Source: Escherichia phage AV106. Taken from it: a DNA stretch of 50,922 nucleotides. The notes below the pieces were generated by a model, which was not told where the DNA came from, ran no database searches, and saw only the letters and a list, made by a program, of their open reading frames with translations. The translations under genes and the position numbers were made by a program. Location: the sequence record OR352937.1. One strand, written 5' to 3'. Shown here in pieces: positions 33,272 to 47,881 of the stretch (positions are counted from its first letter, which is position 1; every line of letters begins with the position of its first letter).

Positions 33272-33382
33272 TCAGTATCTCCCTAAAAATAATTTTGCCA
33301 TATTGATAATAGTGTGATTGATGATTAGCAGGATGATAACCGTCAATGCCGGATGTGCTGCAATAAATTCGTATAGGTTCAT
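33272..33382 (-). CDS. Hypothetical small hydrophobic peptide (36 aa, absent from the ORF track)
   Basis: ATGA overlap with the HAD gene stop; translates MNLYEFIAAHPALTVIILLIINHTIINMAKLFLGRY; its stop abuts the kinase start. Confidence 0.3.
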   Translation of the reverse strand: MNLYEFIAAHPALTVIILLIINHTIINMAKLFLGRY

Positions 33383-33912
33383 TTCTCTACCCCGTGCGAT
33401 TTTAAATGATCGTGAACGTTGTCGCCATAGTCAACTACAGCATATGTGGTTATTCCAAGCGACCGGAATAATGGAATAATTTGCGGTGAATCATCCCAAG
33501 CCGCGAGGATGTTTTCAATACCGATCGCTCGCACAGCTTCCTCTTTCATCACTGTGTCTTTCCGGTTGTCTGTGTGCGGTCGCATGACTAAGTAATCATA
33601 TCGCGCACCGTGATGCTTAAGCCACAACTCAGATGCGTAACGAACCTCATCACTTCGCCCGGTTAAAACTATTACGTGATACCCAGCGGCAAACATAGAG
33701 TTCATCACCTCAATCGTGCTCTGGATGGGGTTATCAAATATTGCGGCTCGATTAAACTCAGACCAGCTTTCAGTCAAGTGCAAATCCTTTGTTGGCAACA
33801 GGTGAAGGCGCTTTGATCCATCACTCAGTGTTCCGTCAAAGTCAAAGATTGCGACGCGGCGCGGACCGAGAAACAGGTTGATAGTTTGACCCCAAATTGT
33901 AATTTTATCCAT
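33379..33912 (-). CDS. HAD-superfamily phosphatase (nucleotidase-like)
   Basis: 177 aa; motif I FDFDGT near the N-terminus and downstream acidic motifs typical of HAD hydrolases. Confidence 0.6.
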   Translation of the reverse strand: MDKITIWGQTINLFLGPRRVAIFDFDGTLSDGSKRLHLLPTKDLHLTESWSEFNRAAIFDNPIQSTIEVMNSMFAAGYHVIVLTGRSDEVRYASELWLKHHGARYDYLVMRPHTDNRKDTVMKEEAVRAIGIENILAAWDDSPQIIPLFRSLGITTYAVVDYGDNVHDHLKSHGVEK

Positions 33913-34442: not shown

Positions 34443-34472
34443 GATCGCTTCCTCGTTTGTTGGTGTAGGGGA

Positions 34473-34518
34473 ATCATAGCGCATCCCCCTTGATAGGTTT
34501 TAGCAATTCGTGCTATTC
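34473..34518 (-). promoter_or_regulatory. Dyad-motif promoter
   Basis: AATAGCACGAATTGCTAAAAC, 22 bp, TATGAT in the loop of GGGGGA...TCCCC. Confidence 0.55.
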
Positions 34519-34718
34519 GTTTTAATAGTGATGCAAAAATAATTTTTTAAGCACGTTACCACGCGCGCTGAATCGACTTGTGGGAGCCTCAAAATTTCGT
34601 GGACCAATTGCACTGCCGACACCTCAGATTTGTAGTAGTGTGCGATTCTGGAGGTGTTTGGGCGCATTCCTTCCACCGCGTCACGCGCTGCATCTTCTGC
34701 TGTCATGATAGTAGCCAT
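34500..34718 (-). CDS. Hypothetical protein
   Basis: 72 aa. Confidence 0.35.
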   Translation of the reverse strand: MATIMTAEDAARDAVEGMRPNTSRIAHYYKSEVSAVQLVHEILRLPQVDSARVVTCLKNYFCITIKTNSTNC

Positions 34719-34821
34719 AAAACACCCTTAAGAGATAATGTCAGGACTAGGAGGCAGAATAGCAACTCCTGAAATGATGGCGGCTCGTTATTCCAGTTAT
34801 AAAAGTCTGGCATAGTGTTTT

Positions 34822-34866: not shown

Positions 34867-35505
34867 TTACATGATGAACATCAGCGAAATCGAAGCTACC
34901 AGGAGAACAAGAGCAATAGCTAGGCCAGACAAGTCTGCTTTCTCTTCAAACTTCATTGCTGGCTTGCGGTCAACATTAATAGGCTTGACGTTGCTAATCT
35001 TGCTGGTGTTGATCTTGCCGTTGACGCGGAAAGTGCGATTGCGCTTCTTACCGAAAGTTGCGAACTTAGTGCCGCCACTGTTCCAACGAAGGCCTTCGCC
35101 ATTGTGAGTTACGGTTGCAATGCGGTGTCGGCCCGTGTCGTCGGTCAGCGCTACAGTGTGCTTTGCGTGCTCAGTAGGCACGTCGTAGATTTTGCCAACG
35201 GTAAATTTTTTGGTGTTATCACTGATACATTCGAATTTCATAAATCTTACCTCTTTATTATGCAGTTGGTTGATTGCTTCGATTACGTCGTTAAATTTAA
35301 CACCATCCACGATTCGATGGAAGATATATTTTGAGCTACCGCCATAAGGCAGGAAAATTTCCTGATATTCGTGACGCCGTACAACGTTCACGTTGCAACC
35401 GTTCTCATCAGTAATGATGAAGCTGTCATCATTTACGCGAACACCTTTGTAAGTTTTTCCCCACTTAAAACCAGATCCGCTACTTGATACGCACTCAAAT
35501 TTCAT
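34867..35505 (-). CDS. Membrane-anchored protein with internally duplicated domain
   Basis: 212 aa; two tandem domains starting MKFECVSSSGSGFKWGKTY and MKFECISDNTKKFTVGKIY; C-terminal transmembrane helix LSGLAIALVLLVASISLMFIM; terminator downstream. Confidence 0.45.
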   Translation of the reverse strand: MKFECVSSSGSGFKWGKTYKGVRVNDDSFIITDENGCNVNVVRRHEYQEIFLPYGGSSKYIFHRIVDGVKFNDVIEAINQLHNKEVRFMKFECISDNTKKFTVGKIYDVPTEHAKHTVALTDDTGRHRIATVTHNGEGLRWNSGGTKFATFGKKRNRTFRVNGKINTSKISNVKPINVDRKPAMKFEEKADLSGLAIALVLLVASISLMFIM

Positions 35506-35789
35506 GGTCTAACCTTCCTGTAAGGCTTGATTGATAACATCACGTATTGCGTGAAGTCGCATTCTTGCTCGTCATAACCGCGATTGATGTATGGCGTCAC
35601 GTCTGTAACATCGGACACCATGGCGTGAACTTCCCACCCGGTAAACTCGTCACGATCGAACTCGCGTAGCTCAAGGATATCACCAACCTGGAAGTTGCGG
35701 TCATTGACGCGGAACTCTGCCGTTTTGGTTCCGTTCATTACACCAATGAAATGTACCGGGGAGATTTTTAACTTATGAGTTTTGCTCAT
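35502..35789 (-). CDS. ASCH/DUF3850-like small protein
   Basis: 95 aa; N-terminal HKLKISPVHFIGVMNGTKTAEFRVNDRNFQVGDILELRE matches the ASCH-like pattern. Confidence 0.45.
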   Translation of the reverse strand: MSKTHKLKISPVHFIGVMNGTKTAEFRVNDRNFQVGDILELREFDRDEFTGWEVHAMVSDVTDVTPYINRGYDEQECDFTQYVMLSIKPYRKVRP

Positions 35790-36057
35790 CTTTCTTTACC
35801 TCGAATGTCACGTTCCAGAATTTATTGCCGCATGAGTGATAGATTACGTCCTGAGACGTGAGTTCGTGCAATGCGTGCCCGATAATCTCCATTCGGTCAT
35901 TCGGCGTCAGTCCGCGAAGCGATTCACGAAGGCGTGAGGCCTTGTCGTAAATCTGCCACTGCGTGAGTCGTGCAGCCATAGCTAATTCCTTATTTGCAAA
36001 ACGGGCAGGTTGATTTATTTCCGCTGCCGCCATGATTAGGGCAGCACACTTTCTCAA
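35773..36057 (-). CDS. Hypothetical protein (start uncertain)
   Basis: 94 aa in the track with a TTG start; first ATG is 8 codons in; overlaps a 25-aa Cys-rich ORF that carries the canonical leader. Confidence 0.3.
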   Translation of the reverse strand: MRKCAALIMAAAEINQPARFANKELAMAARLTQWQIYDKASRLRESLRGLTPNDRMEIIGHALHELTSQDVIYHSCGNKFWNVTFEVKKDEQNS

Positions 36058-36107
36058 TTGGTGTCATAACTGATTCCTCTGATTGGTTGCCATGCTTCAA
36101 TAAGGCC

Positions 36108-36153
36108 ACTATATCAAATGGCCTTGCGGAAGGTTTAGCAATTCGTGCTATCG
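36108..36153 (-). promoter_or_regulatory. Dyad-motif promoter
   Basis: GATAGCACGAATTGCTAAACC, 22 bp, TATAGT (preceded by TGa) in a hairpin, then leader AACCAATCAGAGGAATCAGTT-ATG. Confidence 0.55.
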
Positions 36154-36831: not shown

Positions 36832-36879
36832 GGATTGTACCAGTCAGGACGAATCCCCTTTTAACAATTCGTGCTTAGT
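36832..36879 (-). promoter_or_regulatory. Dyad-motif promoter (24-bp spacing variant)
   Basis: CTAAGCACGAATTGTTAAAAG, 24 bp, TACAAT (preceded by TGg) in the loop of GGGGATT...AATCCCC. Confidence 0.5.
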
Positions 36880-37363
36880 AGACTAGCTCGCACTCAATAG
36901 AGAACGGTTCGGAGTCGCGATGGAAGAAGCAAAACGCTTCTTTATACATGCCACCAACAAATCCAACAGCCTTAAGTTGCTCATGGCTAACGTAGACAAG
37001 GTTGTTGGTAATTTCCTCAAAGTCAACAATAACCGGGAACGTGCGATTCTCATAACCAGGGCGCATAGGATACCCGCCATTGTTGAGAAGTCGAACCTTT
37101 CGCGGCTTGATGTTTGCCTGGACTTCCCATTCAAAAAAGAACATCGTTCCATCATTTTCGTTGAAGTCAGCCGGGCCAAATACTGGACTAACCGATAGGC
37201 CGTAATCCAGATCGTACACGCCAGCTTTTACAAGGTCGTCAACCTTGACGCGGTAGCCGCCAGTGCTATCATCGCACTTCACGGCGTCAACGATAATCGG
37301 GTCAGCTTCCAGGTCGCGAGTAAAGCCTTTGTAACCGCCAGTGCACAGTAATTTAATTTTCAT
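36875..37363 (-). CDS. Hypothetical protein
   Basis: 162 aa; RBS GAGGACGAG; preceded by dyad motif and TATAGT in a hairpin loop. Confidence 0.45.
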   Translation of the reverse strand: MKIKLLCTGGYKGFTRDLEADPIIVDAVKCDDSTGGYRVKVDDLVKAGVYDLDYGLSVSPVFGPADFNENDGTMFFFEWEVQANIKPRKVRLLNNGGYPMRPGYENRTFPVIVDFEEITNNLVYVSHEQLKAVGFVGGMYKEAFCFFHRDSEPFSIECELVY

Positions 37364-38146: not shown

Positions 38147-38410
38147 TTATTCCTCAATTAAAGTGCTTATATCATCATAGCCCTGAAATTCACCATTCCA
38201 GATCAAGAAGCTAGTTACGCCCTCAATCTCAATCCACTTGCCATTCTCCTCTCGATACTCCTTGTAAATGTATGGGGAAAGCTCAATCACTGCATAGCGG
38301 CGATACTGCAAGCCACCATTGATGCTTGAGCAGTAGCGAGAAATGAAAATCGCGTGTTGCTTGTTGTGGCGAGTAGCTTCAATTGCGTTTCTATTCTTGA
38401 CGATTGACAT
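38147..38410 (-). CDS. Hypothetical protein
   Basis: 87 aa; leader CCAATCAGAGGA; preceded by dyad motif and TATAGT. Confidence 0.45.
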   Translation of the reverse strand: MSIVKNRNAIEATRHNKQHAIFISRYCSSINGGLQYRRYAVIELSPYIYKEYREENGKWIEIEGVTSFLIWNGEFQGYDDISTLIEE

Positions 38411-38449
38411 GGTGAATCCTCTGATTGGTATCTCGTTTTGATGGGGTAA

Positions 38450-38495
38450 CTATAGCAAGATACCCCGATCCGTTTTTAACAATTCGTGCTATTTG
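38450..38495 (-). promoter_or_regulatory. Dyad-motif promoter
   Basis: AATAGCACGAATTGTTAAAAAC, 22 bp, TATAGT (preceded by TGc) in the loop of GGGGTA...TACCCC. Confidence 0.55.
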
Positions 38496-38958: not shown

Positions 38959-39153
38959 TTATGCCTCAGCAAAGTAAGTGTTAAATCCTTTGAGTTTGTA
39001 GTCGCTACCTACGCGCACCACGTTCCAGGCAAGTCCCGAGTGATATGCAACCATATCCTCAAGGTCGATCGTGATTTCGGTTCCTTTCTTGAACAGACCC
39101 TTTTCATGAGTTGAGTCGCGCTGAACAACCACTACGTCAATTTGCGTTTCCAT
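38959..39153 (-). CDS. Hypothetical small protein
   Basis: Start moved to ATG (METQIDVV) behind RBS GAGGAAAAGAAG; the track's N-terminal extension covers the promoter. Confidence 0.4.
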   Translation of the reverse strand: METQIDVVVVQRDSTHEKGLFKKGTEITIDLEDMVAYHSGLAWNVVRVGSDYKLKGFNTYFAEA

Positions 39154-39185
39154 CTTCTTTTCCTCTGTATCGTGTCGATGAGAAG

Positions 39186-39231
39186 ATAATACCCGATCCG
39201 CTCGACCGGGCTTTAACAAAAAGTGCTATTC
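39186..39231 (-). promoter_or_regulatory. Dyad-motif promoter
   Basis: AATAGCACTTTTTGTTAAAGC, 22 bp, TATTAT; upstream of ORF 38959..39153. Confidence 0.55.
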
Positions 39232-41909: not shown

Positions 41910-41953
41910 ATAGCACGAATTGCTAAACGCCCCGAGGGGAATCGGGGTATAGT
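41908..41953 (+). promoter_or_regulatory. Dyad-motif promoter
   Basis: AATAGCACGAATTGCTAAACG, 22 bp, TATAGT in the loop of CCCCGA...TCGGGG, then leader CATCAACCAATCAGGAGA. Confidence 0.55.
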
Positions 41954-41984
41954 GAACACATCAACCAATCAGGAGAATCGCCAG

Positions 41985-47342: not shown

Positions 47343-47557
47343 TATCTCCCCCTGATCTTAAGCGCCTTATTTAGATCGCCATCGTTTAACGCTTCCTGAA
47401 TCGCCTTGCTATCACGATACTTCCAGTATGCTCCCCAAGCACCAAAAAGCAGAAAGCAAATGAATGTAGCGCCAGCAATGTAAAGTTGCCCGGTAGCGGC
47501 CCCGACTAATGAAGCGCCGCCCGTGCTGGACGTCGCAGCGGTTAAAAATTCTTTCAT
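47342..47557 (-). CDS. Holin, pinholin-like with two transmembrane segments
   Basis: Start moved to ATG (MKEFLTAA) behind RBS GGTGAG; TMD1 Gly/Ala-rich (SAR-like), TMD2 [14 protein letters not shown], charged C-terminus; directly upstream of the SAR endolysin. Confidence 0.55.
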
Positions 47558-47675
47558 AATCTCACCATATATTTTTTGAACAAGTGAGTCGATTTTAACC
47601 TTCAAATTTATTTTATACAACGCAAAAAGGCCAGCATGTAAATCATGCCAGCCCGTAAGGTTATGAATGATATTG

Positions 47676-47852
47676 TTAATCTAGCTCAATAAATTCCAGG
47701 TAATGACCATTCAGAGGAGCTTGGATTGTTGAACCTCTACCATCGTAAATCTCAAACAATCCACCTCCGAAATCATAACCAACACTATAGATCTGATTTA
47801 CGCGGAATGGAAGCGTTTTGGAATCATTTCGGATGCACTTAACTCGTTTCAT
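47676..47852 (-). CDS. Hypothetical small protein (58 aa, absent from the ORF track)
   Basis: ATG behind RBS AAAGAGGG, with a degenerate dyad motif and TATATT 22 bp apart upstream; translates MKRVKCIRNDSKTLPFRVNQIYSVGYDFGGGLFEIYDGRGSTIQAPLNGHYLEFIELD. Confidence 0.35.
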   Translation of the reverse strand: MKRVKCIRNDSKTLPFRVNQIYSVGYDFGGGLFEIYDGRGSTIQAPLNGHYLEFIELD

Positions 47853-47881
47853 GAAATACCCTCTTTGTTTTCTATGTGGTC

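Follow-up and report, generated by a model that had tools for sequence, protein, structure and literature searches.

The gene at 34867-35505 on the minus strand of Escherichia phage AV106 encodes two SH3-like barrels, a flexible basic linker of about 40 residues and a C-terminal membrane helix, and the two barrels are homologous to each other. The window analysed is the whole of sequence record OR352937.1 (50,922 nucleotides), which is all, or nearly all, of the genome of a T1-like phage (Tunavirus, Drexlerviridae). The protein is probably a new architecture of a known small phage barrel, i.e., tandem, tail-anchored, and probably translated from two starts. An initial annotation, made from the sequence alone, had described the open reading frame (ORF) as a membrane-anchored early protein built from an internal tandem duplication and possibly binding a host envelope target. 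The modules of the gene are given below with their AlphaFold2 secondary structure, predicted local distance difference test (pLDDT) scores, and ratios of non-synonymous to synonymous divergence (dN/dS) among 12 intact Tunavirus genes.

34867-35505, minus strand: ORF of 212 amino acids (aa) plus stop, orthologue of SH6 gp15 and of Bas13 bas13_0070, PHROG 10580
35296-35505, minus strand: barrel 1, residues 1-70, predicted six-stranded SH3-like beta-barrel (strands 2-8, 18-25, 28-32, 38-43, 50-53, 60-66; pLDDT about 90; dN/dS 0.16)
35242-35295, minus strand: connector helix, residues 71-88 (AlphaFold2 helix 71-82), whose coding sequence doubles as the translation-initiation region of an internal start
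35050-35241, minus strand: barrel 2, residues 89-152, the conserved core module (strands 88-95, 106-110, 117-121, 127-133, 138-141, 146-151; pLDDT about 80; dN/dS 0.04)
34933-35049, minus strand: basic disordered linker, residues 153-191, with 12 K+R and 4 D+E (pLDDT below 50 over 152-189; indels among homologues; dN/dS 0.37)
34870-34932, minus strand: C-terminal transmembrane helix, residues 192-212, the predicted tail anchor (Kyte-Doolittle; AlphaFold2 helix 186-211)

The ORF is a real, conserved gene of T1-like coliphages that is under purifying selection. The 1.7 kb surrounding it is 90-95% identical to Shigella phage SH6, to Escherichia phages CLB_P3, LeonhardEuler (Bas13) and JMPW1, and to many more. 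Of the 71 matching phage records, at least 57 carry the ORF intact and at full length, 30-odd protein clusters match it at 70-96% identity, and dN/dS over the whole gene is 0.16 in the 12 intact Tunavirus genes, from which it follows that the gene is translated. A frameshifted orthologue in Shigella phage vB_SsoS_008 (1501-2112) was considered as evidence of dispensability and rejected; neighbouring genes in that record are also split, and sequencing error is as likely as pseudogenisation to account for the several frameshifts.

The similarity of the two halves can be seen at several levels. A Smith-Waterman (SW) alignment of residues 1-19 with residues 89-107 scored 53 with 12 identities, as high a score being reached by 1 of 2000 shuffles (z 6.1), and hhalign of the homologue profiles for residues 1-88 and 89-160 returned a match at 94.5% (E-value 7.5e-8, 58 columns, 28% identity). 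Hidden Markov models (HMMs) of the halves match each other reciprocally (i-E, i.e., independent E-values, 2e-4 and 2e-3) and match no other ORF among the 553 in the window; no further barrel copies were found in the window by the HMMs of either half, a DUF7244 protein discussed below emerging only at the profile-profile level. The AlphaFold2 strands of both barrels correspond in order at a constant offset of 86-89 residues, which is independent support for the repeat. Chance resemblance of the two halves, or an ORF that is no gene at all, is hardly credible. Plain pairwise similarity is indeed limited to the first 19 or so residues, but a chance repeat is refuted by the profile-profile comparison, the reciprocal HMM matches and the matching predicted folds, and a non-gene ORF by the strength of purifying selection on it and by its conservation across dozens of phages.

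The repeat is thus real but old. Without the first eight residues, the plain pairwise similarity of the halves is not significant (z 0.9), and an MK(F/T/V)(E/K)C start characterises the family as a whole; the shared MKFEC(V/I)S beginning pointed out by the initial annotation is a true resemblance, though not one peculiar to the two copies in this gene. The two similar halves that it reported are borne out by self-alignment as well as by the profiles, and structure prediction gives two six-stranded barrels of matching topology followed by a C-terminal helix. Its boundaries need correction, however, since the proposed second half (89-175) extends into the disordered linker, whereas in the AlphaFold2 model barrel 1 spans residues 1-68, the helix 71-82 and barrel 2 89-152. 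The term internal tandem duplication likewise holds for the homology of the halves and fails for an origin within the gene: barrel 1 is no closer to barrel 2 (SW 53) than to other members of the family (77 against P0048 and 56 against P0051), and barrel 2 scores 103-204 (including 204, 129 and 111) against single-barrel proteins of related phages.

The second element of the architecture, the membrane anchor, is also well defined. Over 19 residues, the Kyte-Doolittle mean reaches 2.5-2.7 at residues 192-212, the sole hydrophobic stretch in the protein; windows above 1.2 are confined to residues 186-212, there is no N-terminal signal peptide, and hydrophobicity of the helix is preserved among homologues despite variation in its sequence. 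The linker carries a net charge of +8, no residues follow the helix, and the isoelectric point (pI) of the whole protein is 9.6. A single transmembrane helix in the last 30 or so residues, and a positive-inside charge placing the N-terminal part in the cytoplasm, are the marks of a tail anchor. Because there is no signal peptide, the helix lies at the extreme C-terminus, and the linker is so strongly charged, the barrels are predicted to be cytoplasmic, and the product should be a tail-anchored inner-membrane protein with its barrels on the cytoplasmic face. A two-domain protein with one C-terminal membrane helix, as first proposed, is supported by these data. A host envelope target in the periplasm or outer envelope is unlikely with the barrels so placed, only the inner face of the inner membrane being within reach.

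The topology also bears on a role in superinfection exclusion or in blocking DNA entry at the inner membrane, into which the envelope-target idea might be developed. Small membrane proteins for exclusion are common in phages (e.g., T4 Imm and HK97 gp15), and the AV106 protein is membrane-anchored, accessory in that barrel 1 is absent from T1, and encoded within an arm of small genes. We nevertheless regard this role as very unlikely, as the protein ends with its helix, so that by the predicted topology essentially none of it lies beyond the cytoplasm, and T1-like phages already use the lipoprotein Cor for exclusion (PMC13164509).

In overall layout the protein recalls ElaB, YqjD and YgaM, C-tail-anchored inner-membrane proteins of E. 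coli that are helical and ribosome-associated. They have in common with the AV106 protein a cytoplasmic domain, a basic segment next to the membrane and one helix at the very C-terminus, but there is neither sequence nor fold kinship.

Searches of databases place the protein in a very small family. When 1.84 billion representative proteins were searched exhaustively with HMMER, only eight clusters matched, four of them single-barrel proteins with a hydrophobic C-terminus and one a protein of four tandem barrels that matches DUF6501. Pfam, NCBIfam and PADLOC scans of the 212-aa protein gave no family over threshold, a profile search of the PDB by sequence gave no match, and the PHROGs matches were to families of unknown function plus one weak match to a virion structural protein. 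The literature on Drexlerviridae early transcription, on tail-anchored phage proteins, and on the marbox together with phages yielded nothing on this protein.

Two known kinds of phage barrel are nevertheless informative. The six-stranded small beta-barrel fold of Gp54 of phage Bas11 (PDB 9AXB; PF25180, Phage antiviral trigger protein Gp54) is also the fold predicted for the barrels here. Gp54 is a non-essential protein of 66 aa and of unknown function whose six-stranded barrel was described as rare (PMC11578894), and this barrel activates the defence protein CapRel SJ46 by unfolding and binding to it (PMC11578894). Since Gp54 binds the CapRel sensor, the barrel fold can act as a protein-binding module. 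Unlike the tandem, tail-anchored protein studied here, Gp54 is a soluble single barrel. A true Gp54 homologue is encoded elsewhere in the window, at 38959-39219 on the minus strand (PF25180, E-value 6.7e-35), with its own marbox cassette at about 39229.

The other kind is DUF7244 (PF23896), a standalone SH3 protein located beside the Drexlerviridae lysis cassette, for which a lysis role was hypothesised in phage KanT1 (PMC13164509). The full 212-aa protein reached 16.9 bits (E-value 0.0068) against the Pfam DUF7244 model over residues 12-37 only, under the 27-bit gathering threshold, and the isolated barrels gave no match to it; weak matches to the model recur across the family. A profile built from 22 barrels matched the AV106 DUF7244 protein and Bas11 gp41 by hhalign at 92.3% (E-value 5.6e-7, 52 columns). 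By this comparison, the barrels are remote homologues of DUF7244, a member of the SH3 clan, and the MK.KC start and G..Y...DD.G blocks are found in both. DUF7244 proteins differ in being about 57 aa long, soluble, and encoded beside the pinholin gene, as opposed to 212 aa, tandem, tail-anchored, and in another transcription unit. The standalone DUF7244 protein of AV106 lies at 47679-47879 on the minus strand (E-value 8.5e-29), just upstream of a holin homologue at about 47345-47680, as in KanT1, and is a remote paralogue of the barrels.

The relationship to DUF7244 raises the question of whether the gene could be a regulator of lysis timing, with long and short anchored forms by analogy with DUF7244 and with dual-start holin/antiholin pairs. 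The remote homology, the lysis role proposed for DUF7244 in the KanT1 paper, and the prediction that the protein is membrane-bound and likely has a nested second start all point that way. On the other hand, about 12 kb and a change of transcription unit separate the gene from the lysis genes, AV106 already has a true DUF7244 protein, the lysis role of DUF7244 is itself a hypothesis, and a large cytoplasmic domain with a single helix at the extreme C-terminus is not holin topology. A lysis-timing role is therefore, in our judgement, quite unlikely.

Many uncharacterised phage proteins of 65-75 aa sharing the barrel fold are held in BFVD. One longer BFVD entry, A0A096XT82 of Enterococcus phage ECP3 (179 aa), covers nearly the whole two-barrel model in Foldseek (E-value 1.6e-5, 18% identity), so that a similar multi-barrel architecture may exist outside the Drexlerviridae in a phage of a Gram-positive host.

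Comparison with related phages bears on how the two-barrel gene arose. The gene is part of a long leftward arm of small genes, extending from about 40064 to the terminase genes, and its neighbours and short signals are as follows.

35502-35789: upstream neighbour, a DUF3850/ASCH protein annotated as RNA-binding protein (Pfam E-value 1.2e-15)
35513-35518, minus strand: Shine-Dalgarno (SD) sequence GGAAGG of the first start, inside the ASCH gene, conserved in 12 loci with single changes
35266-35280, minus strand: GAAGCAATCAACCAA, a direct repeat of GAAGCATGGCAACCAA at 36083-36098 and the junction of the T1 arrangement, from an alignment of T1, the AV106 cassette and the internal region of the gene
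35249-35256, minus strand: internal SD sequence AAAGAGGT, 7 nucleotides (nt) before the M89 ATG, identical in 12 of 12 aligned Tunavirus genes
35239-35241, minus strand: in-frame internal ATG (M89), candidate start of a 124-aa product of 13.8 kDa
33379-33912: polynucleotide kinase/phosphatase (pnk), downstream of the gene beyond two small ORFs and one 162-aa ORF

T1 ST68 (CPTT1_010, 124 aa), IME347 gp15, SRT8 gp48 and Bas12 bas12_0070 (gp70) are orthologues of barrel 2, the linker and the C-terminal helix. T1 ST68 is 82% identical to this part of the AV106 protein, the IME347, SRT8 and Bas12 proteins less so, and all four are unannotated hypothetical proteins. These single-barrel genes occupy the same syntenic slot, upstream of ST67/ST66/ST65-pnk; in Badaguanvirus IME347 and in Sertoctavirus SRT8 and Bas12 the order is ASCH, barrel gene, ST67/66/65 and pnk, while T1 ST68, also single-barrel, is without an ASCH gene upstream. 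The single-barrel phages have one barrel with its own promoter cassette of the marbox type (see below) and a ribosome-binding site immediately upstream. In AV106, by contrast, barrel 1 and the connector helix are fused in frame at this place, and translation is coupled to the ASCH gene, the barrel 1 ATG overlapping the ASCH TGA stop (ATGA). The former ribosome-binding region (..CAACCAACTG..AAAGAGGTAAGATTT ATG) is translated within the long ORF, where it makes up codons 78-88. The hairpin 3' of the gene is kept in the single-barrel relatives, and its T-tract is kept in T1 but absent from IME347 and SRT8.

Barrel 2, linker and anchor form the ancestral unit, which is found alone in T1, Badaguanvirus and Sertoctavirus, and barrel 1 is a Tunavirus-specific addition. 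Given that barrel 1 is as near or nearer to the single-barrel proteins as to barrel 2, and that the ribosome-binding site and ATG of the downstream module are intact at the junction, a diverged paralogue appears to have been fused upstream of an existing gene; barrel 1 looks like an old, faster-evolving paralogue (dN/dS 0.16 as against 0.04) and not like a recent copy of barrel 2. The T1 arrangement equals that of AV106 minus the segment between the short direct repeats GAAGCAnnnCAACCAA (36083-36098 and 35266-35280), which removes a 94-aa ORF, the ASCH gene and most of barrel 1. As the outgroups keep ASCH, T1 is most simply explained by a secondary deletion. T1 also shows, as an experiment of nature, that plaques can form without barrel 1.

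The retained initiation region raises the possibility of a second, nested product. The GGAGGT core at the position of the internal SD is the sole ribosome-binding site of T1 ST68, which uses the same initiation region and ATG as its only start. Synonymous divergence (pS) in the 12 genes is 0.068 in codons 71-88 and 0.32-0.35 in all other segments; synonymous variants occur at 4 of these 18 codons compared with 107 of 188 elsewhere (Fisher p 0.006), and the lowest 18-codon pS windows of the entire gene begin at codons 61-74. Non-synonymous divergence is not similarly reduced there (dN/dS 0.46), which places the constraint on the nucleotides. From the internal SD, the suppressed synonymous change and the sole start of T1, we judge that a 124-aa product is made beside the 212-aa form; it is thus fairly likely that there are two nested products, a 212-aa protein coupled to the ASCH gene and a 124-aa protein from M89 comprising barrel 2 and the anchor. 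A whole promoter cassette embedded upstream of M89 was ruled out, as an nhmmer profile of 10 cassettes found none inside the ORF even at E-values up to 10; only a short part of the initiation region (GAAGCA..CAACCAA..GAGGT) is common to the cassettes and the internal region of the gene.

In-frame dual-start genes of phages include lambda S107/S105, T7 gene 4A/4B and lambda C/Nu3. Like them, the gene has an in-frame ATG in its interior, preceded by a strong SD of its own, and synonymous change is suppressed over the internal initiation region, as would suit a nested dual-start gene. In contrast to the known examples, the two predicted forms would differ by a whole folded domain and not by a few residues, and the second product is only predicted.

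As to function, we tentatively read the protein as a membrane-tethered binding adaptor in an accessory host-takeover or counter-defence role, a reading that, taken as a whole, is possible though short of probable. The near-invariant surface of barrel 2 (H134-N-G-E-G-L-R-W-N-S-G-G-T-K-F) would capture a conserved cytoplasmic or membrane-peripheral partner, which the C-terminal anchor would hold at the inner membrane, with the variable basic linker serving as a spacer and barrel 1 modulating or widening the binding by barrel 2. An accessory role is suggested because barrel 1 and the genes next to it are present in some phages and absent from others, a known protein-binding trigger of immunity has this fold, and the gene lies in an arm of small accessory genes. 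On this reading the protein would not be an essential structural or replication protein. The adaptor role is only weakly indicated, and architecture and topology are much more secure.

Several observations weigh against this reading as a whole. Members of the family are named in databases as hypothetical proteins only. The dN/dS of 0.04 in barrel 2 is unusual for a counter-defence gene and could indicate a partner internal to the phage. No sequence similarity to Gp54 was found by hmmscan with PF25180, by phmmer or by hhalign, and Foldseek of the model against the PDB gave no significant match. The AlphaFold2 model was built on 17 close sequences, and one of five models was confident (mean pLDDT 73, 62, 43, 39 and 37); residues 89-212 modelled alone reach a pLDDT of 43, which leaves the fold of barrel 2 resting on the full-length model only. 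As for the nested start, the statistic for synonymous suppression is modest and partly post hoc, and the suppressed variation could also come from RNA structure (e.g., a small hairpin at 35303-35320), an internal promoter or recombinational homogenisation.

A more specific version would set the long and short membrane-tethered barrels, as Gp54/DUF7244-type modules, in the conflict between phage and host immunity, where they may be a decoy or inhibitor of CapRel-type sensors, or a tether removing a defence or takeover target from the cytosol, with barrel 1 as a lineage add-on that changes specificity. We consider this specific version unlikely.

Another account makes the protein a membrane anchor for phage nucleic acid or replication machinery, like phi29 p16.7, with the linker and the SH3/KOW/Tudor-like barrels binding DNA or RNA. 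The net charge of the linker and the pI of the protein would suit such a role, the weak top Foldseek matches in the PDB are tandem KOW, Tudor and SH3 pairs, and the neighbours include the ASCH/DUF3850 RNA-binding protein and polynucleotide kinase. However, the linker is the least conserved part of the protein (dN/dS 0.37, with indels), which suggests a spacer, the Foldseek matches are not significant (E-value 0.09 or above), and sequence searches matched no nucleic-acid-binding family. A nucleic-acid anchor is thus an improbable alternative to the binding adaptor.

The gene is the last in a transcription unit that runs from a promoter cassette to an intrinsic terminator, and that cassette has many counterparts in the window.

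36108-36151, minus strand: promoter cassette, consisting of the marbox ATAGCACGAATTGCTAAAC (36133-36151), 19 nt, and the -10-like TATAGT (36108-36113) in a hairpin loop
34826-34859, minus strand: intrinsic terminator, a GGGGAAC...GTTCCCC hairpin followed by TTTCTTTT, conserved in 13 of 13 Tunavirus loci examined
49913, 49581, 47925, 39229, 38492, 37438, 34516, 33996, 30870, 13989 and 7705, minus strand: starts of similar marbox sites
20129, 23894, 40475, 41446, 41910, 43262 and 44277, plus strand: starts of similar marbox sites
36065-36151, 34445-34515 and 38409-38491, minus strand, and 41911-41982, plus strand: example cassettes

The downstream terminator reported by the initial annotation is confirmed by its conservation and by the annotation of T1, which has a rho-independent terminator at the homologous place; a simple pattern scan had missed it because of its long loop. 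Early expression of the gene is plausible.

The conserved motif of the cassette, (A)TAGCACGAATTGCTAAA(C), is a consensus marbox, the type of site used by the E. coli activators MarA, SoxS and Rob, for which the consensus from chromatin immunoprecipitation sequencing (ChIP-seq) is gcactaattgctaaa (PMC5684230). Allowing up to two mismatches to the 15-mer ChIP-seq consensus, there are 14 matches in the window against 0.24 expected, and 18 against 0.08 expected in phage Bas11, which belongs to another subfamily. The 19-mer AYNGCACNNWNNRYYAAAY with at most one mismatch occurs at 19 sites in the window compared with 0.74 in shuffles; in 13 of the 19, a -10 hexamer matching at five or six of six positions follows downstream after exactly 19 nt, typically within a GC hairpin loop, after which come a ribosome-binding site of the CAACCAATCAGAGGAA type and an ATG. 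In the copies examined, the sites are oriented with the downstream gene, and about 15 copies in the window are picked up by the nhmmer cassette profile. In layout the cassettes are reminiscent of the promoter-early stem-loops of T4-type phages. The 19-nt spacing puts the centre of the box near -41, which is class II geometry; class II SoxS-dependent promoters such as micF have the box centred at -41.5 (PMC9638938). A search of the literature on marbox, Rob or SoxS with phage or Drexlerviridae found nothing relevant. The predicted marboxes suggest that T1-like phages drive many promoters via a host stress activator. Gene shuffling may also use the cassettes as substrates, the difference between T1 and AV106 mapping to short repeats in cassette sequence.

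Some further small ORFs were noted around the gene. A Cys-rich mini-ORF of 25 aa at 35990-36067 on the minus strand (MTPIEKVCCPNHGGSGNKSTCPFCK) begins at the first ATG that follows the 36151 cassette; it resembles a zinc ribbon and lies in a stretch that differs from phage SH6. Directly after the terminator, with its SD overlapping the T-tract, begins a 36-aa homologue of T1 ST67 (34703-34813, minus strand), which may be a small membrane peptide given the hydrophobic C-terminal half (FCLLVLTLSL...). A neighbouring 162-aa ORF at 36875-37363 on the minus strand has a possible internal repeat of its own (KIKLLCTGGY... and KVRLLNNGGY...), which is weak (SW 37, z 3.4, 8 of 1000 shuffles).

The Drexlerviridae repeatedly encode small SH3-like barrels such as Gp54 and DUF7244, one of which is bound directly by a bacterial immune sensor. 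The AV106 gene presents such a barrel in another format, i.e., tandem, tail-anchored at the inner membrane by prediction, and probably in two nested products, and few accessory sequences of T1-like phages are as constrained as barrel 2. The locus would record the birth of a two-domain protein, in which an upstream paralogue was fused via a former ribosome-binding region, with T1 as a natural single-barrel control. The family is tiny, and the restriction of the gene to a single syntenic slot in T1-like phages makes it well suited to deletion and pull-down. The marbox promoters, of which one of about 15-19 such cassettes drives this unit, are probably of wider interest than the protein itself.

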